Below, one piece after another: positions 34,442 to 49,963 of a DNA stretch of 64,000 nucleotides. Position 1 is the first letter of the stretch. Each line of letters starts with the position of its first letter. Where the stretch lies: contig JAGXOC010000001.1 in assembly GCA_019894665.1 (NCBI GenBank), forward strand, positions 18,013 to 82,012, written 5' to 3'. The position numbers were made by a program, and so were the translations under genes. The notes under the pieces were generated by a model. It saw only the letters and a list, made by a program, of their open reading frames with translations, was not told where the DNA came from and searched no databases. This DNA is from Candidatus Thorarchaeota archaeon (lineage in GTDB: Archaea; Asgardarchaeota; Thorarchaeia; Thorarchaeales; Thorarchaeaceae).

Positions 34442-35452
34442 CTACAACTTGGTCAGGATCTGCAAGATGTTCCCAAAATTATGTTCAATAGTACGACTCT
34501 TCTCCGCATATCCCGCAAGGGTATCCAATCTGTCATCCCTTTCAGTGAGCTGGCAGAATTTGTCTGATCGGATCTCTGAATGGATCGCTTCATTTAGTTC
34601 AATTATCTCATCGGATGACTTCAGAATATATTGAAGCATCTTGATGAGCATGTTGAACTCAATGATGTCCCGAAGCTGGAGCGCCTGGCTATAAAATTGG
34701 AATTCCAATCTTGCTAATCTTTCCCTCATTGAAACTAGATTTTGAATCCATTCCTTGGCATCTTCCTCTCTTAATTCTTGACTAAGCCTGTTCCAGAAGT
34801 TTTGTTGATCAAGAAGCTGAACCAAATAGTTTCGAAGGAATTGGAAATGATCTACACCTTTTTCAATATCATCTTCAGTACCGATAGGCTCCATCATCTC
34901 ATCTGTCTGACTGTGCTTTACGGCAATCATGAGTGAGAACTTGTCCACGTATCTCTTCACTTCATCAGTTTTTTCTTTCTCTGTCAGTGCACCAGCAAAA
35001 GTATCGCCTAATGTTAAGATGAATTTGTAGAGACATTCAGAACATATCTCTGCACTACTTGAGATTTCCTTAGTTGACAGAAACTGCATAGCATCCTCTA
35101 GGTCCTTTCCTGGCACATCTTGTCTATGTATCCTCAAAACCCATCCTTGTGAGATACAATAGACTTTGTTGTCCAGGTAGTTGATGTAGATTGACGCATA
35201 GCAAACATTACCATCGGACGCCCTCTCTTCCTCCATACTGTCCTTGTCGTAGTGGAATGAGAAAATAGAAGGATCTATCTCAATGGCATCAATCTCTAGG
35301 ACGCTGTCATCGTTTACACACAGTTTTTCGTCTCCAAAAACTTTGTAGCAAGGACAACCTCTGACTAGCTTGATGCTTGATTCTTTCTCCTGCTTGCTAC
35401 TGCTTGTGCCAAACACGTTCCTTTTCTCCAACTCAAGATTGCGTTTCCTCAA
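34442..35452 (-). CDS. uncharacterised Cys-motif protein (CPCY family), paralog A
   Basis: LVRGCPCYKVFGDEKLCVNDD ... YCISQ ... CSECLYKF, then a helical C-terminal half. Paralog of the 35504-36511 gene. Confidence 0.55.
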   Translation of the reverse strand: MRKRNLELEKRNVFGTSSSKQEKESSIKLVRGCPCYKVFGDEKLCVNDDSVLEIDAIEIDPSIFSFHYDKDSMEEERASDGNVCYASIYINYLDNKVYCISQGWVLRIHRQDVPGKDLEDAMQFLSTKEISSSAEICSECLYKFILTLGDTFAGALTEKEKTDEVKRYVDKFSLMIAVKHSQTDEMMEPIGTEDDIEKGVDHFQFLRNYLVQLLDQQNFWNRLSQELREEDAKEWIQNLVSMRERLARLEFQFYSQALQLRDIIEFNMLIKMLQYILKSSDEIIELNEAIHSEIRSDKFCQLTERDDRLDTLAGYAEKSRTIEHNFGNILQILTKL

Positions 35453-35503: not shown

Positions 35504-36511
35504 TTATGCAGTATGTGTGTCTATATTGTGAAGTGCTGAAACAAGATTGCTGAACTTGTACTCTGTAGTCTTTCTCGCTTCGGAATGCTGAGAGAGCATC
35601 TCACGGATGTTGGAAGGCAAAGCATCACGTTCGACGAGACTGTTTGTTTTCTCACGAATCGAATTGTTGACAGTGATGACCTTCTCAGAGACCCCAACCA
35701 TGAACCGCAGAACACTGAGTGGATCTGTTTCATCAGACGGATCATCAAGAGATAATACTTGAAACAGGAATACTGACTCTAGACGTGCAAGGGTTCTATA
35801 GGCATCAATCAACTCAAGCAGGTCTTGCTCAACTCCAGCTTGCTTCAAGTTTAGCATCATCGATGCCCAGTGGGAGCGGCTTCTGTTGATTTCCCTAAGG
35901 TAGTTCCATAAGTGGGTATTGAAATCTGAGGGTTTTTCACTCGCTTCATACCCACTGAGTTGTATGGCCATATTGGTTGCCAACTCCCGGACATATTTTG
36001 CGATGACCTCTTGTCTCTCATCATCTGTCAGAAAGCCTTCCGAACTCTCTCCTAGGGTCCTCAGATATCTGTAAAGACAATCAGAGCAAAGGACACCATC
36101 TCTACTCTTTTCGGAGGACGTCACGAATTGCAGTGCGCTATCAATCTCAGACACTTTGACATCTTTTTCATTGATACTAATTCGTTGGTTCTGACTCACA
36201 CAATAGCAGAATCCTCCCTTTCTATCGAGAAACATCAGGAGGTAGCACATGCTCTTGTTATCGCTCATATATTCCTCTAGAAGGTGTTGCGAGTCGAGTT
36301 GATTGAAGAAACTTGGGTCAACTGAGATCGCATTGATTGGAAAGACACCATCATTATTCAAACAGACTTTCTCATCACCAAATTCCCGATAGCATGGGCA
36401 TCCTCTCACAAGATGACTAGGACCATCTGGAGAGTCTGATAATAAGCTTGAATCTATGTTCACTCGGGACGCCTCAGGTCGGATTTTGGTGACACTCCTA
36501 ATTGTGTTCAA
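35504..36511 (-). CDS. uncharacterised Cys-motif protein (CPCY family), paralog B
   Basis: LVRGCPCYREFGDEKVCLNND ... YCVSQ ... CSDCLYRY. Same length and architecture as paralog A. Confidence 0.55.
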   Translation of the reverse strand: MNTIRSVTKIRPEASRVNIDSSLLSDSPDGPSHLVRGCPCYREFGDEKVCLNNDGVFPINAISVDPSFFNQLDSQHLLEEYMSDNKSMCYLLMFLDRKGGFCYCVSQNQRISINEKDVKVSEIDSALQFVTSSEKSRDGVLCSDCLYRYLRTLGESSEGFLTDDERQEVIAKYVRELATNMAIQLSGYEASEKPSDFNTHLWNYLREINRSRSHWASMMLNLKQAGVEQDLLELIDAYRTLARLESVFLFQVLSLDDPSDETDPLSVLRFMVGVSEKVITVNNSIREKTNSLVERDALPSNIREMLSQHSEARKTTEYKFSNLVSALHNIDTHTA

Positions 36512-36591: not shown

Positions 36592-36732
36592 TCAACCCCA
36601 CAACTCTCTTTTGAGCAGATCACGAATGGCAATTCGGATAGCTTCTGATCTGTTTGGATAGAGATTACTCTCTACAAGTTTCTCTAGTCCATCAACATAA
36701 GTTTCCGGGATGTGTAAGGTTACGAGTTTCAT
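36592..36732 (-). CDS. ribbon-helix-helix (CopG/Arc-type) DNA-binding protein
   Basis: MKLVTLHIPETYVDGLEKLVESNLYPNRSEAIRIAIRDLLKRE. Start placed at the internal Met; the track ORF extends to 36804. Confidence 0.5.
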   Translation of the reverse strand: MKLVTLHIPETYVDGLEKLVESNLYPNRSEAIRIAIRDLLKRELWG

Positions 36733-37135: not shown

Positions 37136-37897
37136 ATGGCTACAAATGCTGAGAGTAAAGCGGCTGGTAAATCCGAAGATGGAGTGAAAACTTCACAAGA
37201 GCTTGAATCCCTAAAGTGGATTCGTGAAAGACGTTCCATCAGAGAATTCACTGGCGAAAAAATATCCGATGAGCACATCGAGTTGATTTTGGAAGCGGCG
37301 CGACATGCACCGAGTCCAGAGAACATGTTGATGATGCGTTTCGTTGTAATACGTGATGACCAGGATAGTAAGGTTTTCCTAGCAGATATCGCCCAGGAAA
37401 TGGCTCAAACTGCTTTCGGAGGAGCTCCATTTGAACTCACAAGTGGAAGAAACTGGTTTATCAGTGATCCTTACAGAGCGGCAGTCTATGCGAGACTGAG
37501 GGATGGAGAGTTATTCAGATATCCGGAAAAGAGCGACACTGTGATTATTGTTTGTGCAAGTGAAGCTTGGCATGATGCTGGATATCTCTACCCCAATTCA
37601 CTATTTGGATCGGTAGTCTGTGGAATGGCAATCCAAAATATGTGGCTGACCGCCACAGAACTTGGATATGGATGCGGGTATGAGGCACTAGTCTGTTCTG
37701 ATCCCCGTCATGCTCAACTTCTACGTGACCGATTCGGCATCCCACCAATTTGGGAGCCTATAACTGCCTTTTGTATTGGCCAGCGCGTTTCACCACGTGC
37801 TTTAGGTCCCAGCAGAGCCCCTCTTGAGGGTCTGATGTACGAAGAGCGATGGGGCAAACCATACAAGAGACTCGCGTTCAGGAAGGAGGACAAGTAA
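37136..37897 (+). CDS. nitroreductase-family flavoprotein, copy 1
   Basis: RERRSIREFTGEKISDEHIELILEAARHAPSPENMLMMRFVVIRDD matches the nitroreductase N-terminal region. Paralog of the 44358-45122 gene. Confidence 0.65.
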   Translation: MATNAESKAAGKSEDGVKTSQELESLKWIRERRSIREFTGEKISDEHIELILEAARHAPSPENMLMMRFVVIRDDQDSKVFLADIAQEMAQTAFGGAPFELTSGRNWFISDPYRAAVYARLRDGELFRYPEKSDTVIIVCASEAWHDAGYLYPNSLFGSVVCGMAIQNMWLTATELGYGCGYEALVCSDPRHAQLLRDRFGIPPIWEPITAFCIGQRVSPRALGPSRAPLEGLMYEERWGKPYKRLAFRKEDK

Positions 37898-37898
37898 T

Positions 37899-38426
37899 AT
37901 GGACGTCAATTTTGAAGGTAAAACTCTAGATAACATGAAGGAATTAGCTGAAGAGGCTGGTCTTACCCCTGAAGGCTTTATCGAGGTTGTCATGGAGCAA
38001 TTCGTTGACAACAAAGGTGGACGAGTCTACTCAGGCAGATGGTCCGGTGGAGTTGTTGACGGCGAAAAGGGCTTTCGCTATGTCCCGCAATGGCCTTTCC
38101 GACCCGGCTTCAAAGAAGCCGAGGGAGACAAGGTGAAGGGCTGGAAGTCTGGAGGCAAATCTTTCAGACCTCATCCTACTGGAGCTTGGCCTTTCTATCC
38201 GCGACTGAAAGAAGGCGACATCGAGCACGAATACTGGAACACTAAGAAGATGATTCATCAATCCTTCATCAACGACAGAAAGGGACGCGTTGTAGTACTA
38301 ATGGATGGCGACAGATATGATAACTTTCTCGACAAGGTGAAAGCGAGGAAAGGTAATTTCTGGGCGAACTCCGTTGACGATTCTATGCAAGAGGCTGTGG
38401 ATGACTGGATGGCTAAGGAGGAATGA
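37899..38426 (+). CDS. hypothetical Gly/Trp/Lys-rich protein
   Basis: 175-aa ORF translationally coupled between the nitroreductase and the SCP2 gene (GRWSGGVVDGEKGFRYVPQWPFRPGFKEAEGDKVKGWKSGGKSFRPHPTGAWPFYPRLKEG). No known domain. Confidence 0.5.
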   Translation: MDVNFEGKTLDNMKELAEEAGLTPEGFIEVVMEQFVDNKGGRVYSGRWSGGVVDGEKGFRYVPQWPFRPGFKEAEGDKVKGWKSGGKSFRPHPTGAWPFYPRLKEGDIEHEYWNTKKMIHQSFINDRKGRVVVLMDGDRYDNFLDKVKARKGNFWANSVDDSMQEAVDDWMAKEE

Positions 38427-38430
38427 AACA

Positions 38431-38790
38431 ATGTCACAACTACAAGAATTTTTCAAATTCCTGATGACCCAATGCAACACCAAGGATGACCTTAAGAAAC
38501 AGCTCGCCGCTTGGGTTGGTCCCTATCACGGTAAAATCCTTCAGGTTCATACTGAGGAAGGTGACCAATACATGGTGGTGACAAAGGACAAGATCGAGTT
38601 ATTCGAGGGAAGCTATCCTAGTCCTGATGTCACCTACAAATCGAGTGCTGCAATATTGCTTGGTATCTTCACTGGTGAAGTTCCATTCAAAGACACAATG
38701 AAGGACGGAAGTCTTCAGGTCATTGGCAACGCGAACGAAAGCGACCCTCTTGCTAATCTAATTCTTCAGGTAATGATGGGTGCGATGTAG
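38431..38790 (+). CDS. SCP2 sterol-carrier-like domain protein
   Basis: AAILLGIFTGEVPFKDTMKDGSLQVIGNANESDPLANLI matches the SCP2 C-terminal pattern. Start moved to the ATG at 38431 behind a GGAGG RBS. Confidence 0.5.
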   Translation: MSQLQEFFKFLMTQCNTKDDLKKQLAAWVGPYHGKILQVHTEEGDQYMVVTKDKIELFEGSYPSPDVTYKSSAAILLGIFTGEVPFKDTMKDGSLQVIGNANESDPLANLILQVMMGAM

Positions 38791-38801
38791 GAGGAATTGC
38801 T

Positions 38802-39923
38802 ATGGTTAACAAGATTGCCGTCATTGGCTCTGGACTTATGGGTTCAGGAATTGCATACGTGTCCGCGTGGAATGGTATCACTGTCACCATGGTTGATATC
38901 AAACAAGAGTTCATCGACAAGGGTATGGAACGACTCCGAACTGATGTTATGACTGGTATCGACAAAGGGAAGATTACCATGACTCAGGCTGAAGGTCTTA
39001 TGAGTAGGCTCAGCGCAACAATTGATATTGAAGAGGCTGTCAAAGACGCAGACCTTGTCATTGAAGCCATCTTCGAGAATATGGAGGTCAAGAAAGAAGT
39101 TTTTGCCAAGATAGATGCCGCGGCGCCTGCACACGCAATACTGGCTACAAACACATCGTCGCTAAGTATTGATGAGCTAGCAACAGCCACGAAGAGGCCG
39201 GACAAATTCATAGGTATGCACTACTTCTCACCGGTCCCAGCTATGAAGCTATTAGAGCTCGTAATTGGGGACAAGACCAGTGCAGAGACCATTGCTACTG
39301 CTGAAGCTGTGGGCAAGACCCAGGGAAAAACAACAGTCATAGCAAAGAACAGTCCTGGATTCATAGTAAATCGCCTTCTCATGCCAGTTATGCGCGAGGC
39401 AATACTAATGCTGGAGCGTGGAGAGGCAACGAAGGAGGAGATTGACAATGCTATGCTGCAAGTCGGAAAAGCTCCCGCCGGTCCCTTCACATTGGGTGAC
39501 TTTGTGGGTCTCGATATTGCTTACAATGCTATGTCAACCCTATACAGAGAGATTGGTGACTGTTTCAAACCACCTGATACTCTAAAGAACCTCGTTGAAT
39601 CTGGTGCTATCGGTATGAAATCCAAAAAGGGCTTCTACTCGTATGGTGCGGATATTGTAGAACCTGAGGCACCAAAGGGTGCAGATCCGAACTGGATTGT
39701 AGAGCGATTGAATATGCCAGCTGTTCGTGAAGCTATGATTTTGGTGGATGACGATATCGCCAACAAGGAAGACATTGATATGGCCATGAAGCTAGGAGCA
39801 AGCTGGCCCATGGGTCCTTTTGAGATGGCGGATAAATTTGGACTTGACAAGATCAAAGAGTTTCTGACGAAGCTCGAGAGCGAATCAGGTGCTTGTTACT
39901 CGGTTCCGAAATATCTGGAATAA
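38802..39923 (+). CDS. 3-hydroxyacyl-CoA dehydrogenase, copy 1
   Basis: Rossmann fold (IAVIGSGLMGSGIA). NTSSLSI. Duplicated C-terminal 3HCDH_C region. Confidence 0.8.
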   Translation: MVNKIAVIGSGLMGSGIAYVSAWNGITVTMVDIKQEFIDKGMERLRTDVMTGIDKGKITMTQAEGLMSRLSATIDIEEAVKDADLVIEAIFENMEVKKEVFAKIDAAAPAHAILATNTSSLSIDELATATKRPDKFIGMHYFSPVPAMKLLELVIGDKTSAETIATAEAVGKTQGKTTVIAKNSPGFIVNRLLMPVMREAILMLERGEATKEEIDNAMLQVGKAPAGPFTLGDFVGLDIAYNAMSTLYREIGDCFKPPDTLKNLVESGAIGMKSKKGFYSYGADIVEPEAPKGADPNWIVERLNMPAVREAMILVDDDIANKEDIDMAMKLGASWPMGPFEMADKFGLDKIKEFLTKLESESGACYSVPKYLE

Positions 39924-40059
39924 ATCAGATCAAGAAATGGGTGGGGAGTTTCCCTACCCTATCTCTTCTTTTTTTCGATAACAATGCTCATTCGCGAGAA
40001 TGAACGATGTTTATAAGTCAGTCACTCTCTCCGAGAAGATATAGACTCCAAATAGGTGG

Positions 40060-40878
40060 TTGAATATGCCAGAGTATGAAACAATACTTTATTCAAAAGA
40101 GGGCTCGTTCCTTTCCCCTGAAAAGAACGTGGCCGTAATTAAGATGAATCGCATTGATGCAATGAATGCTTTTAATGCTAAAATCCTCGAAGAGCTTGTG
40201 GCAGCATTACAAGAGGCTGAGAATGATCCAGAGGTTAGATCAATTGTAATCGCGTCAACACATGGCAAGGTGTTTGGTGTTGGTGCAGACCTAAAGGATG
40301 CGCAGGCTCTACTAGGCAAACCCGATGAGGTCAGACCTCTCTTGGAACAGGGGATAGAAGCAATCGATACTGTTGCAAAACTTAGCAAACCGGTAATAGC
40401 AGCCATAAATGGACTCTGTCTTGGCGGTGGAACCGAACTTGCTCTCGCCTGTGATATCCGAATCTGCGATACTGAAGCTAAAATTGGAACCCCTGAGGTG
40501 AGTTTAGGTTTAATTCCATCATGGGGTGGATGCGTTAGACTTCCTAGAATTGTAGGACTTGGGAAAGCAATGGAGATAATTCTAACTGGTGGTCAGGTCA
40601 CAGCTCAAGAGGCTCTTGATATGGGTCTTGTAAGTAAAGTTGTAACCAAGGATGAGTTGCTAAGCCAAGCTATGTGGTATGGTGCAAAACTGGGCGGCAA
40701 TGCACCTGTCGCTTTGAAGCTAGCAAAACAAGCCACGCATATGGCTTTCGAAGAAGACTACAAGGACAACTTTGAATTTCTAATTGATGCAGGTGTTGAA
40801 TGTTTCAAGACTAAGGATCTTGGTGAGGGAATCGCCTCAGTCTTTGAGAAGCGACGTGGCAAGTTCACTGGAGAATAG
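40060..40878 (+). CDS. enoyl-CoA hydratase/crotonase family protein, divergent copy
   Basis: Oxyanion-hole motifs (FGVGADLKD; INGLCLGGGTELALACDIRI). Confidence 0.8.
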   Translation: MNMPEYETILYSKEGSFLSPEKNVAVIKMNRIDAMNAFNAKILEELVAALQEAENDPEVRSIVIASTHGKVFGVGADLKDAQALLGKPDEVRPLLEQGIEAIDTVAKLSKPVIAAINGLCLGGGTELALACDIRICDTEAKIGTPEVSLGLIPSWGGCVRLPRIVGLGKAMEIILTGGQVTAQEALDMGLVSKVVTKDELLSQAMWYGAKLGGNAPVALKLAKQATHMAFEEDYKDNFEFLIDAGVECFKTKDLGEGIASVFEKRRGKFTGE

Positions 40879-41039
40879 TAACTTTATAGTCGACCCCGGG
40901 TCTCCGGGGTCATTCTTCTCTTTTTGATGGTTAATCGTCAACCTTAAGACCCCGTACTCGATGGACGATAACATACTGTGTGACATATGAGCCCTGCACT
41001 GATATGAAATGGGCAGGCTCTACCCACGGAGGAAATGAA

Positions 41040-42206
41040 ATGGCAAGAAGAGTTGCTGTTGTCGCTGGCGGCCACAGCAAGTTTGGTAAAAGATTCGATG
41101 CCACTGTGAGAGAACTATCTGCAGAAGCCTTCAAACCGATTGTCGATGAAGGTATCACACAAGACAAGATAGACGCGAGTATTCTTTCATATGCAGCATC
41201 GCAATTCTCAGGTCAGGGAGCGGGTTCCGCTTTAATCGCTGACTACATTGGACTTCAGAACAGACCCCATATGCGAGTCGAGTCTGCTTGTACCACAGGA
41301 ACTGCCAGCCTCAGGGCTGCGTGGGGAATGGTTGCAGCAGGACTCTATGATGTAATGTTGGTTCTTGGTGTCGAACAAATGAATCGTGTATCCTCGGCTA
41401 TGGCGACAGAATATATGTCGCAGGCTGGCGATATGCGTTGGGAGTATCCTTTTGGTATAAGCTTCCCTGCATTCTATGCTCTAATGGCTTCACGCTACAT
41501 GAGTGAGTATGGTATGACCCATGACACTCTTGCAAAAATAGCCGTGAAATCCCATCACTATGGTGCACAGAATCCCAAGGCACATCTACCCAAAGAAATT
41601 ACGTTCGAAGAGGCTAATAATGCGGTTGCGATTTGTAGCCCACTTAATCTCTACGACTGTAGCTTGATCACTGACGGTGCTGCTGCTGTTGTTATCGCTT
41701 CAGAGGATAGGGTCAAAGAATTCACTGACAGACCTATGTGGATCAAGGGTATTGGAGCTGGTGCCTCTGAGATGATGATTCAGGATAGAGCTAGTCTCAC
41801 CTCAATCCCAGGTGCTAAGTATGCTGCTAATGCTGCTTACAAGATGGCTGGAGTAGAACCCAAGGATATTAAGATGGCACAGGTGCATGATTGTTTCACT
41901 ATTGCTGAACTTATTGCATACGAGGATTTGGGCTTTGCAGAACCTGGTAAGGGTCCTGAGCTCGTCGAGAATAAAGAGAACTATCACGACGGTCGTATCC
42001 CGGTCAATTGTGATGGTGGTCTCAAGAGTAAAGGTCATCCTTTGGGCGCAACTGGCGTATCAATGACCTATGAAGTCATGAAACAGATGAGAGGCGAAGC
42101 TGAGAACAGTTCTCGTCAAATCGATGATGTAGACCTTGGTCTAGTTCATAACGTTGGACAGTCCGGACAATTCGTCAACGTGTTCATCTTTGAGAGGGGT
42201 TGGTAA
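41040..42206 (+). CDS. thiolase-like acetyl-CoA C-acyltransferase (archaeal SCP-x type)
   Basis: Start moved to MARRVAVVAGGHSKFGK. Catalytic Cys region (VESACTTGTASL). C-terminal motifs (NCDGGLKSKGHPLGATG; NVGQSG). Confidence 0.75.
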   Translation: MARRVAVVAGGHSKFGKRFDATVRELSAEAFKPIVDEGITQDKIDASILSYAASQFSGQGAGSALIADYIGLQNRPHMRVESACTTGTASLRAAWGMVAAGLYDVMLVLGVEQMNRVSSAMATEYMSQAGDMRWEYPFGISFPAFYALMASRYMSEYGMTHDTLAKIAVKSHHYGAQNPKAHLPKEITFEEANNAVAICSPLNLYDCSLITDGAAAVVIASEDRVKEFTDRPMWIKGIGAGASEMMIQDRASLTSIPGAKYAANAAYKMAGVEPKDIKMAQVHDCFTIAELIAYEDLGFAEPGKGPELVENKENYHDGRIPVNCDGGLKSKGHPLGATGVSMTYEVMKQMRGEAENSSRQIDDVDLGLVHNVGQSGQFVNVFIFERGW

Positions 42207-42209
42207 GAG

Positions 42210-42623
42210 ATGTCGGAGCACAAAGAGCTCTACCTCGGTTACTCGACTGACAAAGCAGTTACACCCTTCTTTCAAGATTTTCTTGAAGCGCTTGAGCAAG
42301 AGAAGCTCATGAAGAGCAAATGTACATCTTGTGGAGCCGAATACTTACCCCCTAGACAACATTGTCAGAAATGCCTGAGTGAATGCACTCTGACAGAGAT
42401 GACCGAGAAGGAAGCGAAGTTATACTCATACGTCGTTGTTGAATTCGCTCCTATGAGTCTATCATCAAAACAACCCTATGTGGTAGCTATTGGTGAATTT
42501 CCATCAGGTCTTCGACTAACTGCGCATATCACCAATCTGATGGCTATGCCAGAGGTTGGGATGCCCCTCAGGCTTGGTTTTGAAGCAAAAGAAAAAATGG
42601 TCACTTACAAGTGGCTTGTATAG
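42210..42623 (+). CDS. DUF35 zinc-ribbon / OB-fold protein (thiolase partner)
   Basis: CTSCGAEYLPPRQHCQKC rubredoxin-like ribbon followed by an OB-fold-like region. Translationally coupled to the thiolase gene. Confidence 0.65.
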   Translation: MSEHKELYLGYSTDKAVTPFFQDFLEALEQEKLMKSKCTSCGAEYLPPRQHCQKCLSECTLTEMTEKEAKLYSYVVVEFAPMSLSSKQPYVVAIGEFPSGLRLTAHITNLMAMPEVGMPLRLGFEAKEKMVTYKWLV

Positions 42624-42667
42624 TCAAAGGTTGAGCCTTCGGGCTCTCCTTTCTCTTTATTTTTCGA

Positions 42668-42868
42668 TTATTCTTTGCGGATAGTATCCAGGAAAGAAAT
42701 GCACCCATTAGGACATTCTTCGATACAATTCCCACAGTCCTTACAATATTGGATATGTGCCACTTGCGGTTTCTCATCTATCTTCTCATACACCCCATAA
42801 AGGCAGGTCTTAACACAGGTCCCGCATCCATCGCAGCAGTTCTCATTCAGTATTGTTGGGATAATCGT
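42668..42868 (-). CDS. small 2x[4Fe-4S] ferredoxin-like ORF with no canonical start codon. Absent from the ORF track
   Basis: Minus-strand frame (coordinates approximate) encodes ...CDGCGTCVKTC... and ...CKDCGNCIEECP..., two CxxCxxCxxxC(P) motifs. The ORF is open from an upstream TGA to a TAA but has no ATG/GTG/TTG before the first cluster. A GGTGA RBS-like motif precedes ATT/ATC codons. Confidence 0.3.
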   Translation of the reverse strand, partial: TIIPTILNENCCDGCGTCVKTCLYGVYEKIDEKPQVAHIQYCKDCGNCIEECPNGCISFLDTIRKE

Positions 42869-42939
42869 TCACCTGTTTGAATTGGAATTAACAAACGGTG
42901 TAGTAATATGAATGATAGTTTAGCGACATAGATTGACTG

Positions 42940-43335
42940 TCACGAACCGTATGTGTGATCGTATTCTGAAAGCGTTTCCAATACTGATGCCCAACGTGTT
43001 TGCATCATAACTGTCTTCAGGGTCTCTAGATAGATGAGCGATGCTTCCTTTGAATCACAACAATTAAGCTTCTCAAGGGCTGTATCAATCAAACTTTTGA
43101 TGTCATTCATTCTGCGTTTTCCAGCATTCCGTCTATAGCTCGAAAAAATAACGTAATCCTTCTTGACATCCTTGAGTCCTTGAATGAGTCGTGCTTCTTC
43201 GTGAACAACTGTCTTGAATTCATAGGTGCTCTCAAGAGATGCCTTCATTGCACTAAGACTCTCTCTCCATACATCTCTCTTTTCTAAGCTAACCATCACT
43301 GCAATCTCCGGGGGATACTTGTTATTTGGATACAA
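42940..43335 (-). CDS. hypothetical protein
   Basis: 131-codon ORF between the two beta-oxidation-like modules. No recognisable motif. Confidence 0.35.
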   Translation of the reverse strand: MYPNNKYPPEIAVMVSLEKRDVWRESLSAMKASLESTYEFKTVVHEEARLIQGLKDVKKDYVIFSSYRRNAGKRRMNDIKSLIDTALEKLNCCDSKEASLIYLETLKTVMMQTRWASVLETLSEYDHTYGS

Positions 43336-43431
43336 ACGAGTAATTAAACATTAAGTGATTCCAGGGTCATACGCGCGAAGGCTTATTACTCGCCTATGAA
43401 CTAGAGCGATTACTAACCAGGAGGAAGAGCT

Positions 43432-44217
43432 GTGTCTGAACAGGAAGTTCTCTACGAAGTGGCTGATGGAATTGCTACCATCACTATTAATCGACCTACA
43501 AAATACAATGCTTTGAACAACACGGTAAGATCAGCTCTAACTGATTTCTTCAAGAAGGCTGAGAAGGATGATGCTGTAAGGGTTGTTATCTTGACCGGTG
43601 CTGGGGAGAAAGCATTTGCTGCAGGAGCTGATATCACAGGGTTCCCAGGTATAGACTCGAAAAAGGTACGGCCAGCTGCTCTGCAAGGACAAGAACTCAG
43701 TGTGTATATAGAGTCGATGAGTAAACCAGTGATTGCCGCTGTAAACGGTTTTGCACTGGGAGGGGGCTGCGAGCTTGCCATGGCGTGTGACATCCGGTAT
43801 GCATCAGCAAATGCAAGATTTGGCCAACCTGAGATACTTCTGGGTATCATTCCAGGGTACGGTGGTACAGTTAGACTTCCACGACTTGTCGGTCTCGGAA
43901 TGGCTAAAGAGCTTGTATACACAGGAGATCAGATCAAAGCGGATGAAGCATTACGGATTGGTCTAGTAAACAAAGTGTTTGATTCTATTGAAGCCCTCCA
44001 TGAAGGTACGAAAGAACTAGCAACCAAGTTGGTTGGAAAACCTGGTGTGGCACTCAAACTAGCAAAACAATCACTGAATAATGCTTGGCAACAAACTCTT
44101 ACTGATAATCTTGCATTTGAGCTTGACTCGTTTTGTCAGACATTCGATACTGAGGATAAAGAAGAAGGTGTCGCAGCTTTCCTTGAAAAGCGCAAAGCAG
44201 AATTCAAACACAAATAA
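43432..44217 (+). CDS. enoyl-CoA hydratase/crotonase, copy 2
   Basis: INGFALGGGCELAMACDIRYAS. The C-terminus (AFCQTFDTEDKEEGVAAFLEKRKAEFKHK) is nearly identical to that of the 46275-47060 gene. Confidence 0.8.
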   Translation: MSEQEVLYEVADGIATITINRPTKYNALNNTVRSALTDFFKKAEKDDAVRVVILTGAGEKAFAAGADITGFPGIDSKKVRPAALQGQELSVYIESMSKPVIAAVNGFALGGGCELAMACDIRYASANARFGQPEILLGIIPGYGGTVRLPRLVGLGMAKELVYTGDQIKADEALRIGLVNKVFDSIEALHEGTKELATKLVGKPGVALKLAKQSLNNAWQQTLTDNLAFELDSFCQTFDTEDKEEGVAAFLEKRKAEFKHK

Positions 44218-44357
44218 CAGATCAAGACATTTCCAAATGAATGCGTTTGTATAAATAGTGCCTTTACATGGTGGAATAAAGATTGCAGGTGGATAGGTAT
44301 ACGTTACATGATAGAGGAAATACCCTCCTTTTCCCGTAACTTGCCCGAGGTGAGGTA

Positions 44358-45122
44358 ATGACAACGAAAGCAAAAGGAAAATCGGATAGTAGTAGTGAGA
44401 AGCTAGAAGACACAAAGATTGCTTCAGGGCTCGAAGCAATGAAGCATGTTAGGTCTCGACGCTCAATCCGAGAGTTCACTGGCGGGAAGATTCCTGATGA
44501 TCACATCGAGCTGATATTAGAAGCAGCACGACATGCTCCAAGTCCTGAGAACATGTTAATGATCAGGCTAATTGTGATACGAGATGACCAGGCAACAAAG
44601 GAATTCTTAGCAGACATAGCACATGAAAATGCACGGACAGTATTTGGTAACTCTCCTTTTGAGCTCACAAGCGGAAGAAATTGGTATATCGGAGATGAAT
44701 TTCGAGCCGCTGTGTTCTCTCGACTTCGGGAGGGGACGCTTTTCAGGTATCCCGAGAAGAGCGATACCGTCATAGTTGTGTGTGCAAGTCATGCGTGGCA
44801 CGATGCAACCAAATTGTACCCCAATGAACTCTTCGGATCTGTTGTTGCAGGTATGGCTATACAAAACATGTGGATGGTCGCAACTGCAATGGGGTATGGT
44901 TGCGGCTACGAGGCTTTGGTTTGCTCAGACTCACGACACACTCAGTTAATTCGTGATAGAATTGGAATCCCACCGATTTGGGCACCTTTGACAGCATTTT
45001 GTATTGGTGTTCCTGTTTCTACAAGACATCTGGGACCCAGTCGACCACCACTAGAAGGACTACTGTATGATGAACGATGGGGTAAACCATACAGAAGGAT
45101 TGCATTCAGAAAAAAGGAGTGA
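44358..45122 (+). CDS. nitroreductase-family flavoprotein, copy 2
   Basis: SRRSIREFTGGKIPDDHIELILEAARHAPSPENMLMIRLIVIRDD. About 65% identical to copy 1 over the full length. Confidence 0.65.
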   Translation: MTTKAKGKSDSSSEKLEDTKIASGLEAMKHVRSRRSIREFTGGKIPDDHIELILEAARHAPSPENMLMIRLIVIRDDQATKEFLADIAHENARTVFGNSPFELTSGRNWYIGDEFRAAVFSRLREGTLFRYPEKSDTVIVVCASHAWHDATKLYPNELFGSVVAGMAIQNMWMVATAMGYGCGYEALVCSDSRHTQLIRDRIGIPPIWAPLTAFCIGVPVSTRHLGPSRPPLEGLLYDERWGKPYRRIAFRKKE

Positions 45123-46255
45123 AGGAAATGAAGGTCAAAAAGATAGCAGTTATTGGTGCCGGTCTCATGGGAGCAGGAATCACATATGTGTCTAGAGCAT
45201 CTGGATATGAAGTGATAATGACTGATTTGGATGACGACGCGCTACAACGTGGTCTGTCAAGGTTCAATGGTTATGTGGAATCAGGAGTCAAACGAGGGAA
45301 GTTATCACCCAAAGATGGCGAGAAGTTAATCAGTCAGCTAACTACTACAACAGATCTGAGCGAAGCAGTCAGTGATGTGGATCTGGTCATAGAGGCTGTA
45401 TTCGAAAACATGGACGTCAAGAAGAAACTATTCAAAGAAATGGACAGTGCTGCCAAACCTCACACAATCCTCGCTTCCAACACATCCTCCCTTAGCATAA
45501 CCGAGCTTGGAAAGGTGACAAACCGACCTGACAAGGTAGTTGGGATGCACTACTTTTCTCCTGTTCCTGCAATGAAGCTTCTTGAGGTCATCATAGGAAG
45601 AGAGACGAATGATGATACTGTTCAGACTGCCTTAGAAGTTGGTGAGAAACAGAGGAAAATTACTGTGAAGGCAATAGATAGTCCAGGATTCATTGTCAAC
45701 AGACTCCGTAGCCAGATTTCGAGAGCAGTATTACAGATCTATGAACAAGGCTTGGCAAGTGCTGAAGAGATTGACACAGCCATGAAAGAGAAGTTCGGTA
45801 CACCAATGGGATCATTGGAACTGACTGACTTTGTTGGCCTGGATGTATCATTTGGTACCGGGAGTACTCTCGAGAGAGAATTGGGAGATTGTTACAAAGT
45901 TCCTGAAATACTCAAGAAGTATGTAGAGGAAGGAAGAATTGGAAGGAAGGCTGGCAAGGGTTTCTATGCTTATGAAGATGGCCAGAAACGGTCGCTTGAA
46001 GAACCAAAGGGTGCAGATCCAGATGTGCTGGTCAACAGAATCATCATGCCATATCTGAGAGAGGCTATGATTGAACTCGAGACCGGGATTGCATCAAAGG
46101 AGGATATTGACAAGGCTATGAAACTGGGTTCTAACTATAAGGAAGGACCCTTTGAAACCATTGAACGGCTTGGTCTTGATACGGTTCGAGAGGAGTTGAA
46201 GAAACTTCAGGAAGAATTTGGAGATTGCTATAACCTTCCCAAAATGCTTCAGTGA
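45119..46255 (+). CDS. 3-hydroxyacyl-CoA dehydrogenase, copy 2
   Basis: IAVIGAGLMGAGIT; NTSSLSI. Same two C-terminal-domain architecture as copy 1. Overlaps the upstream stop codon by 4 nt. Confidence 0.8.
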   Translation: MKEMKVKKIAVIGAGLMGAGITYVSRASGYEVIMTDLDDDALQRGLSRFNGYVESGVKRGKLSPKDGEKLISQLTTTTDLSEAVSDVDLVIEAVFENMDVKKKLFKEMDSAAKPHTILASNTSSLSITELGKVTNRPDKVVGMHYFSPVPAMKLLEVIIGRETNDDTVQTALEVGEKQRKITVKAIDSPGFIVNRLRSQISRAVLQIYEQGLASAEEIDTAMKEKFGTPMGSLELTDFVGLDVSFGTGSTLERELGDCYKVPEILKKYVEEGRIGRKAGKGFYAYEDGQKRSLEEPKGADPDVLVNRIIMPYLREAMIELETGIASKEDIDKAMKLGSNYKEGPFETIERLGLDTVREELKKLQEEFGDCYNLPKMLQ

Positions 46256-46274
46256 CAGTGGGTGTGAGAAAACT

Positions 46275-47060
46275 ATGACTGAAGATCTGGTTCTCTATGA
46301 TGTAGAAGACGAGATAGCCATAATCACAATTAACCGACTAGAGAGATACAACGCTCTCAATATTGGTGTGAAGAATAAACTACTAGAGCTGTTGAAACAT
46401 GCTGATGAAGATCCATCTGTCAGAGTAGTTATTCTCACCGGATTAGGAGAGAAAGCATTTATTTCTGGAGCAGATGTAACTGATTTTGTTGGTCGGAACT
46501 CTAAGACCATCCGGGAAGTTGTGGACCCTAGTAGAGAGATAGCTCAGTATATGACCTCAATGAAGAAGCCAATTATTTGTGCTGTAAATGGATATGCGCT
46601 TGGTGGAGGCTGTGAGCTAGCACTTGCATGCGATATCCGCTATGCATCCATTAATGCAAAATTAGGTCTTCCAGAAATCAATCTTGGAACCATACCAGGT
46701 AATGGTGGAACTGTCAGAATGTCTAGGCTTGTTGGCCTTGGAATTGCGAAAGAACTAATTTTCACTGGTGATTTGATAACTGCTGAGGAAGCTTTGAGAA
46801 TTGGTCTTGTGAACAAAGTCTTCAACTCTGTAGATGAACTCAGAGCAGGTGTAGTAGAACTCGCAAAGAAATTAGCACAAAGACCAGGAGTAGCTCTTAA
46901 TCTAGCAAAACAGTCTATACAGAATGCTTGGCAATTCCCTCTCGACGAACATCTCGCCTTCGAGCTTGATGCGTTTTGTCAGACCTTTGACACTGAGGAT
47001 AAGGAGGAAGGTGTAGCAGCTTTCCTTGAGAAGCGTAAACCTGAATTCAAACACAAGTAG
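46275..47060 (+). CDS. enoyl-CoA hydratase/crotonase, copy 3
   Basis: Start moved to the ATG at 46275 (MTEDLVLYDV). VNGYALGGGCELALACDIRYAS. Close paralog of the 43432-44217 gene. Confidence 0.8.
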   Translation: MTEDLVLYDVEDEIAIITINRLERYNALNIGVKNKLLELLKHADEDPSVRVVILTGLGEKAFISGADVTDFVGRNSKTIREVVDPSREIAQYMTSMKKPIICAVNGYALGGGCELALACDIRYASINAKLGLPEINLGTIPGNGGTVRMSRLVGLGIAKELIFTGDLITAEEALRIGLVNKVFNSVDELRAGVVELAKKLAQRPGVALNLAKQSIQNAWQFPLDEHLAFELDAFCQTFDTEDKEEGVAAFLEKRKPEFKHK

Positions 47061-47082
47061 TGTTGACATTGTAGTAATTAGA

Positions 47083-48018
47083 CTAAGCTCTTTGAAGCTG
47101 AATGTGTCCATCCTCGAGGAGAACAAGGTCATTCTTGGACAGAAATTCAATGTGCTTGTCGAGCATGATTTCTTCGAAAAGAAGGTAGACTGAATAGGGA
47201 ATTCGAGGATATATTATTGGAACTTGAGCAAGTTGCTTCACAGTATCTACTCCTTCACCGATATGATGGAGAATTTCTTCATCGCGTTTGTCGAAGAACG
47301 CTAAGTAGCTCCTAAGCTGCTCATCAAGTCCCTCAGTTACTGGATCTAAAAGATGACTGCTGATTCCCATGGGAGGTTGCAAATCGATTATTCTTTCAAT
47401 AGACTTCCTGAAATCCTCAAGGTCACTAACGATATTTCCATACCACGGTCCGAAATCTGTGAGGTCTATATCAACAAGAAGTATCTTCTCAAGTCCATTG
47501 ATACCAAAACAAGTATGGTCATGAGTGTGACCCGGCGAATGGATAGGGGTGAGTTGTACTTCACCGCAATCTATTGGTCTATCATCCCGGAATGTGCCAT
47601 CTACTATGTAGTCATCTTGCACGTGTGGTAGTCTTGATCTTAGTAAGCTCAGCCATTGCTCTTTTGTTTCTGGACTAACGATCCCTATGGTTTTCATCAT
47701 GGTTTCAAAGCTTTCGACTGCATCCCTAGCCAATGGGTGACATAACACTTCACAGTTGGAGATACGTCGAAAATGTGAGGTGTAACCCTTGTGATCCGCA
47801 TGAAAATGAGTTAACACGATACGGTCGAGGTCTTCTGGTTTATGACCTAGGTCTCTAAGAGTTGAGAATACTTGTTCTGGATGTGAACCTGCGTCTACAA
47901 GAGTGAGTATCTCGTCATCGATTATCAAAGTGTTTGCTTCTGGGAAACGAGCTTCATTTTTCCCTCTAACAAGATGAACATGTGGTTCAATCTCAATGTG
48001 AGCAGGATATTCTGACAT
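47083..48018 (-). CDS. metallo-beta-lactamase-fold hydrolase
   Basis: HxHxDH motif (LTHFHADHKG). Further His (HSPGHTHDH). Confidence 0.65.
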   Translation of the reverse strand: MSEYPAHIEIEPHVHLVRGKNEARFPEANTLIIDDEILTLVDAGSHPEQVFSTLRDLGHKPEDLDRIVLTHFHADHKGYTSHFRRISNCEVLCHPLARDAVESFETMMKTIGIVSPETKEQWLSLLRSRLPHVQDDYIVDGTFRDDRPIDCGEVQLTPIHSPGHTHDHTCFGINGLEKILLVDIDLTDFGPWYGNIVSDLEDFRKSIERIIDLQPPMGISSHLLDPVTEGLDEQLRSYLAFFDKRDEEILHHIGEGVDTVKQLAQVPIIYPRIPYSVYLLFEEIMLDKHIEFLSKNDLVLLEDGHIQLQRA

Positions 48019-48092: not shown

Positions 48093-49565
48093 TTGCTGGT
48101 GATTTCGATGAGTGACCGTCTCTTTGCGATATTTGACATTGGAACAACAGGAACCCGTTCCGTCATTGTAGATGAAGAAGGGCGTGAGGTTAGTAAGGCG
48201 TATGAAGAGTACCCTTCAAACCCCAAAGACATTGGAGTGCATGAACAGGTTGCAGATACTTACTGGCGTGCATCAGCCAATACAATGCAGAGAGCACTAG
48301 CAGGTTGTAAACATGGACCAGATGCTATCGTTGGTGTGGTTGTAACTACAGCTCGTGACTCGATTACACCGATAGACAAAGATGGTAGAGCTTTGGCCCC
48401 TACTGTGACTTGGATAGATGCCCGAAAAACTGCAAAGAGCAAGGAGATGGCCGAAGAAATTGGTCAACGAAATGCAGTCAGAAAGATGATGTGGTTCAGT
48501 GAGAATCGGCCCAAATTATACGAGAAGTCATACAAATGGCCACACATTGATGCGTTCATCAACAATCGTCTTTGTGGTGCAGTTGTTAGTTCTCCTGGAG
48601 AAGCTAGATACGGTCCATTTGATTTTGAAACTCTCCAGTGGTCTGAAGAGTTGTGTGAAGCGACTGGAATTCCTATTGACAAACTAGCTGAAATCAAGGA
48701 TTCTGGAACAACTATTGGTGAGATCAGTTCAGAGGCTGCCAAGGCCACATCACTACGAAAGGGGACACCTGTAATTCTAGGTAGTGGGGACCAGCAGTGT
48801 GCTGCTTTGGGTATGGGAGTAATTGAAACTGGCAAAGTCAAAGCTACTACTGGTACTGGAACCTTTGTGATTACTCATCTTGATGAATTTATGGAAGAAA
48901 CATTTGTGATGTACTGCCATCCTTCTGCAATGCCCGGGAAGTGGATTCTAGAAGGCGTGACTCCGGGAACTGGACTTACTTACAAGTGGTATAGAGACAA
49001 TTATTGCGAGCCTGAGATGGCTCTAGCAGCTCAGACCAAGAAAGACGTCTATCAAATCATCGAAGCCTCAGCAGCTTCTGTACCCCCCGGCAGTGATGGA
49101 CTTGTTATGTTCCCGTTCATGGCATACAATCTAGGAATACTATACAATCTTGGTTTTAGTCACACCAAAGCACATGTTGCTCGAGCAATCTTGGAGGCGA
49201 ACGGATACACCATCTCATTCTATCTTCAAATGATGGAAGGGATGACTGACATTGAGTTCAAGGAACTTCTCATTGCGGGAGGTGGAGCAAACTCTCCATT
49301 GTGGCGTCAGATCATGGCTGATTGTGTGAATAAAACCGTTGTACTTCCCAAAGTACGAGACTCAACAGTGATTGGTGCTGCAGTTCTTGGTACAGTTGGA
49401 ACTGGAATCTACGGTGGATTTAAGGAAGCTGTAGAAAATATGGTTCACATTGAAGAACGACGAGAGCCAATTCCTGAAAATGTGGAAGTGTACGAGAAGC
49501 AGTATAAAATCTACAACAAACTATTGAATGCTGAAACGGGAAAAATACTGGATGCAATATCCTAA
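48093..49565 (+). CDS. FGGY-family carbohydrate kinase, possibly glycerol kinase by context
   Basis: N-terminal ASKHA motif (AIFDIGTTGTRSV). FGGY C-terminal motifs (IAGGGANSPLWRQIMADC). It sits next to GlpA/B/C, but the N-terminus is not the canonical GlpK signature. Confidence 0.65.
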   Translation: MLVISMSDRLFAIFDIGTTGTRSVIVDEEGREVSKAYEEYPSNPKDIGVHEQVADTYWRASANTMQRALAGCKHGPDAIVGVVVTTARDSITPIDKDGRALAPTVTWIDARKTAKSKEMAEEIGQRNAVRKMMWFSENRPKLYEKSYKWPHIDAFINNRLCGAVVSSPGEARYGPFDFETLQWSEELCEATGIPIDKLAEIKDSGTTIGEISSEAAKATSLRKGTPVILGSGDQQCAALGMGVIETGKVKATTGTGTFVITHLDEFMEETFVMYCHPSAMPGKWILEGVTPGTGLTYKWYRDNYCEPEMALAAQTKKDVYQIIEASAASVPPGSDGLVMFPFMAYNLGILYNLGFSHTKAHVARAILEANGYTISFYLQMMEGMTDIEFKELLIAGGGANSPLWRQIMADCVNKTVVLPKVRDSTVIGAAVLGTVGTGIYGGFKEAVENMVHIEERREPIPENVEVYEKQYKIYNKLLNAETGKILDAIS

Positions 49566-49566
49566 A

Positions 49567-49818: not shown

Positions 49819-49963
49819 TGGTCATTCACTAAATCAACCCGCGAATATCTCCTTTTAATGTAATCTTGACTATCATTTACTTTCTTATCCAATCCGAAAC
49901 CTTAGTATTGCACGCACGTTCACTACACATATCCAAACCCCCGAAGCAGTATCTCAGGAAAAG

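Follow-up and report, generated by a model that had tools for sequence, protein, structure and literature searches.

Thiolase/DUF35 complexes have been characterized in Sulfolobus, and multiple thiolase/DUF35 pairs per genome were found in 67% of 62 Asgardarchaeota genomes screened (bioRxiv 10.1101/2024.07.05.601840). Sulfolobus acidocaldarius and the Thorarchaeota locus analyzed here have in common an (S)-type 3-hydroxyacyl-CoA dehydrogenase (HBD), a crotonase, and a DUF35-partnered archaeal thiolase. In Sulfolobus, oxidation proceeds by acyl-CoA dehydrogenase (ACAD) plus ETF and synthesis by an NADPH enoyl-CoA reductase of the MDR family, and neither nitroreductase-fold (NTR) nor RHH-like nor SCP2 components are described in that work (bioRxiv 10.1101/2024.07.05.601840). 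The Thorarchaeota operon, in contrast, keeps HBD and crotonase as separate genes and has an NTR cassette in the lead.

The window, a 64,000-nt stretch of a Thorarchaeota contig, contains the cluster at 37136–48018. The original prediction assigned eleven plus-strand genes to two modules, A and B; all eleven are present, and their coordinates and family assignments were upheld. Module A begins with NTR-A, an FMN flavoprotein of the NTR fold (37136–37897; PF00881, 83.6 bits), whose ATG has GAGGT 8 nt upstream. It continues with a 175-aa ORF (37899–38426; no Pfam or NCBIfam matches), an SCP2-like lipid-binding protein (38431–38790; PF02036, 23.6 bits versus a cut-off of 21.3), and HBD-A (38802–39923; 3HCDH_N, E 5e-64), which has two 3HCDH stretches, the additional repeat lying at the C-terminus. 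Crotonase A, an enoyl-CoA hydratase (40060–40878; ECH_1, E 1.4e-63), has a short-chain enoyl-CoA hydratase family as its best NCBIfam match and starts at either TTG 40060 or ATG 40066. The archaeal-type thiolase (40980–42206; NF004720, 458.7 bits versus a cut-off of 420; Thiolase_N and Thiolase_C_1) likely has its true start at ATG 41040, and its stop codon lies 3 nt from the start of its partner, a DUF35 protein with a zinc ribbon and an OB fold (42210–42623; zf-ChsH2, OB_ChsH2_C). We interpret the region as a conserved archaeal acyl-CoA operon in its Thorarchaeota form, made up of the cassette, HBD, crotonase, and thiolase plus DUF35.

The conserved unit is a previously undescribed four-part cassette: NTR, two ribbon-helix-helix (RHH)-like proteins of ~85–90 aa (sm1 and sm2), and the SCP2-like protein. 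The 175-aa ORF represents both small proteins fused into one. In sm1, an RHH-like N-terminus precedes a conserved β-hairpin, while in sm2 a conserved N-terminal segment precedes an RHH-like C-terminus. That sm1 and sm2 are fused in some genomes and separate in others argues for an interaction between them. The SCP2 assignment is supported by the match of the corresponding profile (A7) to solved SCP2 folds, namely 3cnu (E 3.5e-7), 3bn8 and the SCP2 domain of SCPx (4uei). Gaps of 1, 4 and 11 nt separate NTR-A, the fusion, the SCP2 gene and HBD-A in turn, and the cassette parts are translationally coupled. All 66 Bathyarchaeia-like loci have an intact cassette, with SCP2 after sm2 in each, as do 60 of 72 Thorarchaeota loci; the other 12 are attributed to NTR-B copies (see below). 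The 175-aa and SCP2 genes, previously treated as bystanders, are thus invariant partners of NTR. Proteins of the SCP2 fold accompany the handling of hydrophobic CoA esters or lipids in the eukaryotic peroxisomal β-oxidation enzymes SCPx (a thiolase) and MFE-2 and as accessory proteins such as UbiJ/UbiT. The cassette likewise places a small SCP2-fold protein beside such enzymes but, unlike SCPx and MFE-2, encodes it as a free-standing gene tied to NTR, with no thiolase or dehydrogenase fusion.

An AF2 model of NTR-A (pLDDT 77) matched NTR folds with a Foldseek probability of 1.0, the top match being the C-terminal domain of FbiB (4xoo, E 6e-12), a dehydro-F420-0 reductase that also has an FMN-binding NTR fold and is the closest structural relative with a characterized function. 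This domain reduces a carboxyl-conjugated C=C bond, which makes enoyl reduction chemically plausible on an NTR fold. However, identity is just 21–23%, NTR-A scores 44.7 against TIGR03553 (cut-off 249.6), and it has neither the F420 ligase domain nor an F420 biosynthesis context. The closest solved sequences are two structural-genomics entries from Geobacter, 4dn2 and 4g8s (E 3e-15). These share with NTR-A a C-terminal GPSR-P-L-E...W motif but are ~40 residues shorter and without the central insertion; the NTR clade has its own insertion (residues ~95–135) and a C-terminal extension. Residues R32, R33, S34 and R36, which we take to be the FMN-phosphate motif of the superfamily, are invariant across 56 members of the clade, and R105, R114, R191, R221, R227, R238 and R245 are further invariant arginines. 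There is also a weak sequence match to albonoursin synthase (8uc3, E 1.6e-4). AlbA/AlbB and SagB-type dehydrogenases are NTR-fold flavoenzymes that catalyze Cα/Cβ dehydrogenation, and AlbA/AlbB needs a small partner subunit. As their substrates are peptides and their partner proteins are unrelated to those of the cassette, they serve as an analogy only.

The cassette adjoins β-oxidation genes in >100 loci from two archaeal phyla, a recurrence that places the pairing far beyond chance. Linkage of the NTR clade to these genes, proposed earlier from a single window, is seen in Thorarchaeota, Hodarchaeales and Bathyarchaeia; the association whose absence was to count against the original prediction is therefore present. 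HBD lies ≤2.6 kb after the cassette in 61 of 62 Thorarchaeota loci. Among 41 Bathyarchaeia-like loci, 32 have HBD within that distance and 35 have HBD or crotonase after the cassette; at least one β-oxidation gene is found ≤6 kb away in 23/24 Bathyarchaeia-like loci. Gene order is the same in Hodarchaeales (L003) and Bathyarchaeia (L001). Minimal operons consist of the cassette with HBD only (L106) or crotonase only (L160), and in two loci (L041, L082) the cassette is on its own.

ACAD was found in 0/82 Thorarchaeota and 1/82 Bathyarchaeia-like NTR loci, leaving enoyl-/acyl-CoA redox as the sole step of the cycle not visibly encoded in the operons. In agreement with the original prediction, a Pfam scan of the 64 kb (non-nested ORFs ≥150 aa plus SCP2, DUF35 and orf131) detected no ACAD or ETF domain, and a tblastn search of the window with two archaeal ACADs as queries gave no matches at E ≤ 1e-3. 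We tentatively favor the reading that the cassette may be a lipid-directed redox complex that depends on FMN and acts on the enoyl-/acyl-CoA step. All four parts, we infer, would assemble as one complex, in which the RHH halves of sm1 and sm2 would pair, their conserved extensions would clasp the NTR dimer, and SCP2 would hold the hydrophobic acyl chain. The complex would then use its flavin for a two-electron step on the CoA-thioester pool that it shares with the operon enzymes. The likeliest such step would be reduction of 2-enoyl-CoA with NAD(P)H or, in reverse, oxidation of acyl-CoA. We count in favor of this the integrity of the cassette, the fusion, the tight gaps, the HBD linkage, the conserved order, the minimal and ACAD-free operons, the invariant arginines, the structural kinship with FbiB and the SCP2 profile match. 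A search for NTR-family enzymes acting on CoA thioesters found none, which weighs against it.

Several observations count against an enoyl-/acyl-CoA role: ACADs in the same genomes, the reported ETF, proximity of cassette and ACAD (within ~1 kb in L004/L005, abutting the operon in L115), an NTR gene after ACAD, the solitary cassettes, and the RHH-like fold of sm1/sm2, which is normally DNA-binding. At least 15 protein clusters are named Thorarchaeota ACAD, and one such ACAD shares a 1.55-Mb contig with a cassette homolog. Assembly TM1S.149 encodes both a canonical ACAD and an NTR-A 93% identical to that of the window, and one Thorarchaeota MAG is reported to carry EtfAB (PMC8072921). The cassette is hence no stand-in for an absent ACAD, and the favored complex would supplement, without replacing, the canonical enzyme that such genomes encode elsewhere. 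The claim that NTR occurs instead of ACAD thus holds for the operon and fails for the genome. Similarly, the idea that NTR supplies the missing step retains the linkage and the ACAD-free operons in its support, but with ACADs in the same genomes and ETF reported in Thorarchaeota nothing is missing.

In four Thorarchaeota assemblies, ACAD is directly followed by NTR2, a distant paralog (30% identity to NTR-A) translationally coupled to a gene for a 182-aa protein without an assigned family, and no ETF gene was found ≤7–10 kb from these loci. This arrangement suggests that NTR proteins may cooperate with ACADs, and agrees more with partnership than with replacement. The NTR module could be an electron-transfer partner, passing electrons between pyridine nucleotides and the ACAD flavin in ETF-like fashion, or from HBD-derived NADH to a lipophilic acceptor held on SCP2. 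The cassettes close to ACAD are in keeping with this, as is the NAD-dependent HBD being the tightest and commonest neighbor (in module B, the HBD start overlaps the NTR stop by 4 nt). We nevertheless consider it unlikely, given the cassette operons without ACAD, the ETF reported in Thorarchaeota, and the finding that the 182-aa partner of NTR2 is, on comparison, unrelated to sm1/sm2 or SCP2. NTR-fold proteins are, moreover, classically enzymes of two-electron hydride transfer with small-molecule substrates and do not shuttle electrons from one protein to another.

Coexistence with canonical ACADs would also suit an auxiliary enzyme, either a reductase or an isomerase, that handles non-standard chains, for instance by reducing 2,4-dienoyl-CoAs or by acting on unsaturated or branched (isoprenoid-derived) acyl-CoAs, with SCP2 solubilizing the long chain and ACAD serving the core cycle. 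Eukaryotic SCP2 domains accompany the branched-chain β-oxidation enzymes SCPx and MFE-2, in line with the SCPx match. Linkage is variable (9/41 Bathyarchaeia-like loci have no nearby HBD, and two cassettes are solitary), and the genes upstream include acyl-CoA synthetases in L004, in L084 and in 8/31 Bathyarchaeia-like loci. But no sequence feature indicates a particular substrate, and for an accessory activity it would be unusual to head the operon and to occur in nearly all Thorarchaeota; we rate this account as unlikely too.

The RHH-like fold also raises the improbable option of a regulatory module, in which sm1/sm2 would bind DNA as an RHH pseudo-dimer modulated by NTR (redox or NADH) and SCP2 (acyl-CoA or lipid), by analogy with the flavoenzyme-repressor PutA and antitoxin-type RHH proteins with partner-clasping extensions. 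A separate 46-aa CopG-type RHH_1 gene (36592–36732, minus strand; PF01402, 34.9 bits versus a cut-off of 20.5) runs divergently from the operon and may encode a transcriptional regulator; Thorarchaeota locus L087 has a 46-aa RHH_1 gene in the equivalent place. It is very improbable that NTR-A is a generic detoxification enzyme, reducing nitro compounds, quinones or flavins, and that its proximity to β-oxidation genes means nothing: broad PF00881 is the sole family assignment above a curated threshold and databases call the protein plain nitroreductase or FMN reductase, but NTR-A scores far under the cut-offs of all named NTR subfamilies (NCBIfam), gene order is maintained over >100 Asgard and Bathyarchaeia loci, and the partners are obligatory, coupled and, for one pair, fused.

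Module B (plus strand) comprises crotonase B1 (43432–44217; ECH_1, E 1e-73), NTR-B (44358–45122), HBD-B (45119–46255) and crotonase B2 (46218–47060; ECH_1, E 2.8e-65; likely start ATG 46275). NTR-A and NTR-B are 72% identical (estimated earlier at ~65%), and the dehydrogenases, as predicted, are paralogs (53%). Close paralogy of the crotonases applies to B1 and B2 (66%) and not to crotonase A (41–43% to either). NTR-B is Thorarchaeota-specific and is not accompanied by its own small-protein or SCP2 genes; of 73 Thorarchaeota loci retrieved, about 19 contain it. In the tree, the NTR-B clade and the NTR-A clade of Thorarchaeota are sisters. Module B is a later, Thorarchaeota-only partial duplication (NTR-HBD-crotonase). 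What had been called a twice-conserved pairing is, by tree and census, one ancestral pairing duplicated within Thorarchaeota, and module B is therefore not independent evidence.

Between the modules lies orf131 (42940–43335, minus strand), conserved and Thorarchaeota-specific, with no family match in the Pfam scan; most Thorarchaeota loci have it in this place, at times in duplicate. A metallo-β-lactamase-fold gene (47083–48018, minus strand; PF00753) closes the cluster; in the majority of Thorarchaeota loci its neighbor is crotonase B1 or B2. Crotonase B1 is present in nearly all Thorarchaeota loci, with or without module B, and where NTR-B is absent it is followed directly by the metallo-β-lactamase gene.

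The original prediction placed eleven genes of beta-oxidation-related families on the + strand, in a module A (37136-42623, from the nitroreductase-fold protein NTR-A to DUF35) and a module B (43432-47060, crotonase B1, NTR-B, the 3-hydroxyacyl-CoA dehydrogenase HBD-B and crotonase B2), and all eleven are present there with the families proposed. The crotonases, HBDs and thiolase match ECH_1, 3HCDH_N plus 3HCDH, and Thiolase_N plus Thiolase_C_1, respectively, all far above the cut-offs. In the thiolase–DUF35 pair (gap, 3 nt; NF004720, 458.7 versus a cut-off of 420), DUF35 matches zf-ChsH2 and OB_ChsH2_C. In both HBDs (38802-39923 and 45119-46255; 373-378 aa), the 3HCDH repeat occurs a second time at the C-terminus; the counterpart has 282 aa in Bathyarchaeia and 372 aa in Hodarchaeales. 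NTR-A and NTR-B are close paralogs, as proposed, at 72% rather than ~65% identity, and the two HBDs are paralogs at 53%. The paralogy claimed for the crotonases holds for B1 and B2 (66% identical), whereas the crotonase of module A is only 41-43% identical to either. Archaeal genes in the window encode a proteasome alpha subunit, an archaeal-type (PF04414) D-aminoacyl-tRNA deacylase and a TrmB-family protein, and almost all close homologs of the cluster genes are labeled Candidatus Thorarchaeota. The nearest genomic loci are those of Thorarchaeota AB_25 and SMTZ1-45, where NTR-A is 92-93% identical to that of the window.

No acyl-CoA dehydrogenase (ACAD) or ETF domain was found by a Pfam scan of the 64 kb that took in the non-nested ORFs of 150 aa or more, and tblastn with two archaeal ACADs gave no match in the window, in line with the original prediction. 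The three-domain ACAD architecture (PF02771/PF02770/PF00441) had no Pfam match in any scanned ORF. NTR falls outside the ACAD family, and the likeness proposed between the two is one of function only.

In more distant homologs, NTR is without exception the first of four genes, and behind it come two small ones (~85 and ~90 aa) and one of ~120 aa. This four-part order is present in Bathyarchaeia (L001/L002), Hodarchaeales (L003), a contig labeled Promethearchaeota (L079), and also in loci L004/5, L081, L082 and L084. In the window, a single gene (37899-38426) encodes 175 aa; the N-terminal half aligns with small protein 1 (sm1; common motif GGRVYxGxW...GxRYVxQWPF) and the C-terminal half with small protein 2 (sm2; common motif YRKxPxGEWPxYPxL...RKGRxVxLM). 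The 175-aa protein is a fusion of the two small cassette proteins, and the split form is kept in some Thorarchaeota genomes (clusters P0153/P0154; locus L087). The spacing of the four parts in the window is 1, 4 and 11 nt. The product of the ~120-aa gene (38431-38790) scores 23.6 bits with PF02036 (cut-off 21.3), and its profile, A7, matches solved SCP2 folds (3cnu, E 3.5e-7; 3bn8, E 4.8e-6; the SCP2 domain of SCPx); it is SCP2-like and predicted to bind lipid.

A word-indexed homolog search with the 175-aa protein returned close Thorarchaeota relatives only, and it took an exhaustive HMMER run against 1.84 billion representative proteins to bring up the split halves. Genuine matches amounted to only about 28 clusters, comprising the separate halves and one more fusion, and no Pfam or NCBIfam model matches the sm1/sm2 family, which is thus small and lacks a model in either collection. 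Two further hits, P0156 (2666 aa) and P0178 (1140 aa), were false positives, being low-complexity repeat proteins on inspection. For the fusion, an AF2 model (pLDDT 78, pTM 0.48) had ribbon-helix-helix (RHH) proteins as its sole fold matches, with low Z (≤4.2), and the profile matched CopG (E 0.004, residues 2-37) and ParG (E 0.31, residues 125-175). Our reading of the model is that two RHH-like halves, each with a better-conserved extension, would pair with each other, which would account for the fusion of sm1 to sm2. Such a pseudo-dimer may bind DNA or, alternatively, clasp a partner protein. The operon is one of a known kind, with an undescribed, strictly conserved accessory cassette.

Is this cassette linked to beta-oxidation genes in other genomes? 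Two sets of loci were scored by tblastn, 73 of Thorarchaeota, taken from GTDB species genomes, and 80 metagenomic ones of a Bathyarchaeia-type clade. Where the contig has room, the full cassette is found in 60/72 Thorarchaeota and 66/66 Bathyarchaeia-like loci; we attribute the 12 Thorarchaeota exceptions to NTR-B copies. An HBD gene lies within 2.6 kb downstream of the cassette at 61 of 62 Thorarchaeota and 32 of 41 Bathyarchaeia-like loci (61/62 and 35/41 for HBD or crotonase). HBD, crotonase and thiolase all occur within about 6 kb downstream in 38/46 and 11/24 loci, respectively, and at least one beta-oxidation gene within 6 kb in 45/46 and 23/24. An ACAD gene is absent from the cluster in the window and, among 164 related NTR loci, from all but one (ACAD in 0/82 Thorarchaeota and 1/82 Bathyarchaeia-like loci, the latter L115). 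Minimal operons consist of the cassette with HBD only (L106) or with crotonase only (L160), and the cassette is rarely alone (L041, on a complete Thorarchaeota chromosome, and L082). These counts indicate that the linkage, predicted from the window, is real, ancient and beyond chance, yet not obligatory, and that HBD is the most constant neighbor.

Of the Thorarchaeota loci whose sequence extends at least 2.6 kb downstream, L041:10001-11769 (CP070658.1) is the sole one in which no HBD gene follows the cassette; crotonase and thiolase genes are likewise absent, and a DRTGG/AAA_26 (phosphotransacetylase-N-terminal-like) gene lies upstream. In non-Thorarchaeota lineages, AMP-binding (acyl-CoA synthetase-like) genes are found within 4 kb upstream of the cassette (8/31 Bathyarchaeia-like loci; L004:3428-5119; L084:1136-5559), and OsmC-family genes are immediately upstream in L004 and L084.

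In most Thorarchaeota loci, DUF35 is followed by orf131, then crotonase B1, and then directly by a metallo-beta-lactamase gene. NTR-B, HBD-B and crotonase B2 lie between these last two genes in only a subset of Thorarchaeota loci, and in two assemblies (L077, L078) the trio is elsewhere in the genome. A neighbor-joining tree places the NTR-B clade as sister of the Thorarchaeota NTR-A clade, within the Thorarchaeota branch. Module B is thus a partial duplication confined to Thorarchaeota, without small-protein and SCP2 genes of its own, and what had been taken for a twice-conserved pairing is a single pairing that was copied. The copy has been kept as an NTR-HBD-crotonase unit in which the NTR-B and HBD-B genes overlap by 4 nt, and this argues that NTR works with these enzymes. 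The intervening orf131 (42940-43335, − strand) is Thorarchaeota-specific and kept between DUF35 and crotonase B1, with tandem copies in L022, L024, L048 and L049.

NTR-A and NTR-B score 83.6 and 76.7 bits, respectively, with PF00881 (cut-off 23.5). With an AF2 model of NTR-A (pLDDT 77), Foldseek returned 195 PDB matches at E ≤ 1e-3, the best 50 of which are all NTR-fold with probability 1.0; by sequence and predicted structure, NTR-A truly has the NTR fold. The structures that it matches best are those of the FbiB C-terminal domain, several uncharacterized "hub" nitroreductases, Geobacter 4dn2 and BluB. For each of the named NTR subfamilies, the score stays far below the NCBIfam equivalog cut-off (BluB, 55/150; FbiB C-terminal domain, 44.7/249.6; NfsA, 43.3/223; RutE, 23.5/152). 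Residues R32, R33, S34 and R36 do not vary among 56 clade members, and by analogy we take R32-R36 to be the N-terminal R-x-S-x-R type FMN-phosphate motif. Seven further arginines are also invariant within the clade and would suit a phosphorylated ligand, for example CoA. The NTR domain of FbiB reduces an enol-pyruvyl C=C bond, and the NTR-fold enzymes AlbA and SagB catalyze alpha,beta-dehydrogenations, making the proposed chemistry plausible on this fold.

We infer that the four cassette parts would assemble into an FMN redox complex, directed to lipid, that works on the CoA-ester pool of the operon. Such a complex would catalyze an enoyl-CoA/acyl-CoA redox step, possibly in the reductive direction and driven by NAD(P)H in these anaerobes. 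As this is the one step for which the operon has no gene, it is the most economical assignment, although we hold it tentatively. We are a little more doubtful of the broader proposal, in which an NTR-fold FMN protein, a heterodimeric RHH-like clamp and an SCP2 carrier would constitute a new type of enoyl-CoA reductase/ACAD, with which Thorarchaeota, Hodarchaeales and Bathyarchaeia would run a thiolase-based fatty-acyl cycle without ACAD/ETF.

It had been suggested that NTR may act instead of an ACAD. With the ACAD that neighbors the cassette in L004 as query, we retrieved at least 15 Candidatus Thorarchaeota clusters bearing the name acyl-CoA dehydrogenase, and three of these share a genome with the cassette. 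P0283 (~1.28 Mb) and the cassette homolog P0039 (~0.58 Mb) lie on one 1.55-Mb contig of GCA_021498125.1; P0272 is in the same assembly as cassette locus L048; and P0223 is in TM1S.149, where NTR-A is 93% identical to that of the window. EtfAB clusters are reported for a Thorarchaeota MAG (PMC8072921). Hence, "instead of ACAD" is true of the operon and not of the organism, and the simpler idea that these organisms lack ACAD is corrected.

All four Thorarchaeota ACAD loci compared (L085:8181-13982, L088, L089 and L090) have one common arrangement. A thiolase/DUF35 pair is divergent from a short-chain-type ACAD gene (best NCBIfam match, the acryloyl-CoA reductase AcrC, below cut-off), which is followed by a gene for NTR2. 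This NTR-family protein (247 aa) has 30% identity to NTR-A and the C-terminal motif LGPxRxPxE...WGxP in common with it. Tightly coupled to NTR2 is the gene of a 182-aa protein of no family, and an isopropylmalate/citramalate-synthase-like gene comes last. There is no ETF gene within 7-10 kb of these four loci. Acyl-CoA redox genes thus have NTR-family neighbors at two separate Thorarchaeota loci, with an ACAD at one of them. This weakens the idea that NTR replaces ACAD and leaves the idea that NTR cooperates with acyl-CoA redox enzymes. Such cooperation could make NTR an electron partner of ACAD, for which the NTR2 neighborhood speaks and against which the ACAD-free cassette operons do, or of HBD; overall we consider this role unlikely. 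Less likely again is that NTR is an auxiliary reductase for unusual chains. Neither sm1/sm2 nor SCP2 is a relative of the 182-aa protein (BLAST E 13; hhalign probability 0.1%), for which the PDB gave no match.

The RHH-like fold of the fusion might suggest that the cassette is a redox/lipid-sensing regulator. Upstream of the NTR operon and divergent from it is a 46-aa CopG-type RHH_1 gene (36592-36732, − strand), which is also found in this place in L087 and likely encodes a regulator of the operon; PadR genes are found at that upstream position in Bathyarchaeia and Hodarchaeales. The operon thus already has candidate regulators, and the acidic N-terminal strand of the fusion speaks, weakly, against sequence-specific DNA binding. 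We view a regulatory cassette as improbable. That NTR is an unrelated detoxifying reductase, a role compatible with the fold and at odds with the operon linkage, is highly improbable.

In the characterized Sulfolobus systems, oxidation relies on ACAD with ETF, and synthesis on an NADPH enoyl-CoA reductase of the MDR family (bioRxiv 10.1101/2024.07.05.601840); unlike the cassette operon, neither system has an NTR, RHH-like or SCP2 component. Our literature search found no nitroreductase-family enoyl-CoA reductase and no association of NTR, SCP2 and HBD. The benzoyl-CoA, bbs and steroid side-chain pathways were dropped as candidates, a judgment from the Pfam and NCBIfam tables, as the HBD belongs to the usual 3HCDH type and the neighborhood has no genes specific to these pathways.

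Asgard fatty-acid metabolism is central to the "lipid divide", the question of how fatty-acid lipids came into use in an archaeal host. In current metabolic reconstructions of Thorarchaeota and Bathyarchaeia, the NTR gene is simply called "nitroreductase". It is part of a four-part cassette that is strictly conserved, includes two parts of no family and is wired into an HBD/crotonase/thiolase operon in two phyla. The cassette is a concrete, cloneable candidate for an unrecognized redox step in archaeal acyl-CoA metabolism. Were the NTR complex an enoyl-CoA reductase/ACAD, a textbook reaction would gain a new enzyme family, and this in the lineage closest to eukaryotes; it would bear on how Asgard and Bathyarchaeia archaea make or consume fatty acids.

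Several other genes around the cluster deserve mention. Directly 3′ of it (48093-56786, + strand) are genes for a glycerol-kinase-like kinase of the FGGY family, for a GlpA-like FAD dehydrogenase and its FAD_binding_2 and CCG/4Fe-4S partners (a GlpABC-like set), and for a FAD oxidase resembling GlcD, together with a CCG protein. FGGY and GlpA-like genes likewise follow the cluster in L087, and these genes and the acyl-CoA genes could together form an island for lipid (glycerol plus fatty acid) utilization. Two tandem paralogs of ~335 aa (34442-35452 and 35504-36511, both − strand), of no Pfam family and with a Cys-rich N-terminal motif (VRGCPCY...), are found upstream of the cassette in most longer Thorarchaeota loci. 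A 313-aa ORF (60103-61044, − strand) has a below-threshold match to Vps35 (PF03635, E 3.6e-5, 22.9 bits versus a cut-off of 35) and may be an Asgard eukaryotic-signature-like protein. Finally, a 1297-aa protein (24075-27968, + strand) combines an N-terminal TrmB winged-helix with long apolipoprotein-like helical repeats, and a 1299-aa homolog is encoded upstream of the cassette in L087.
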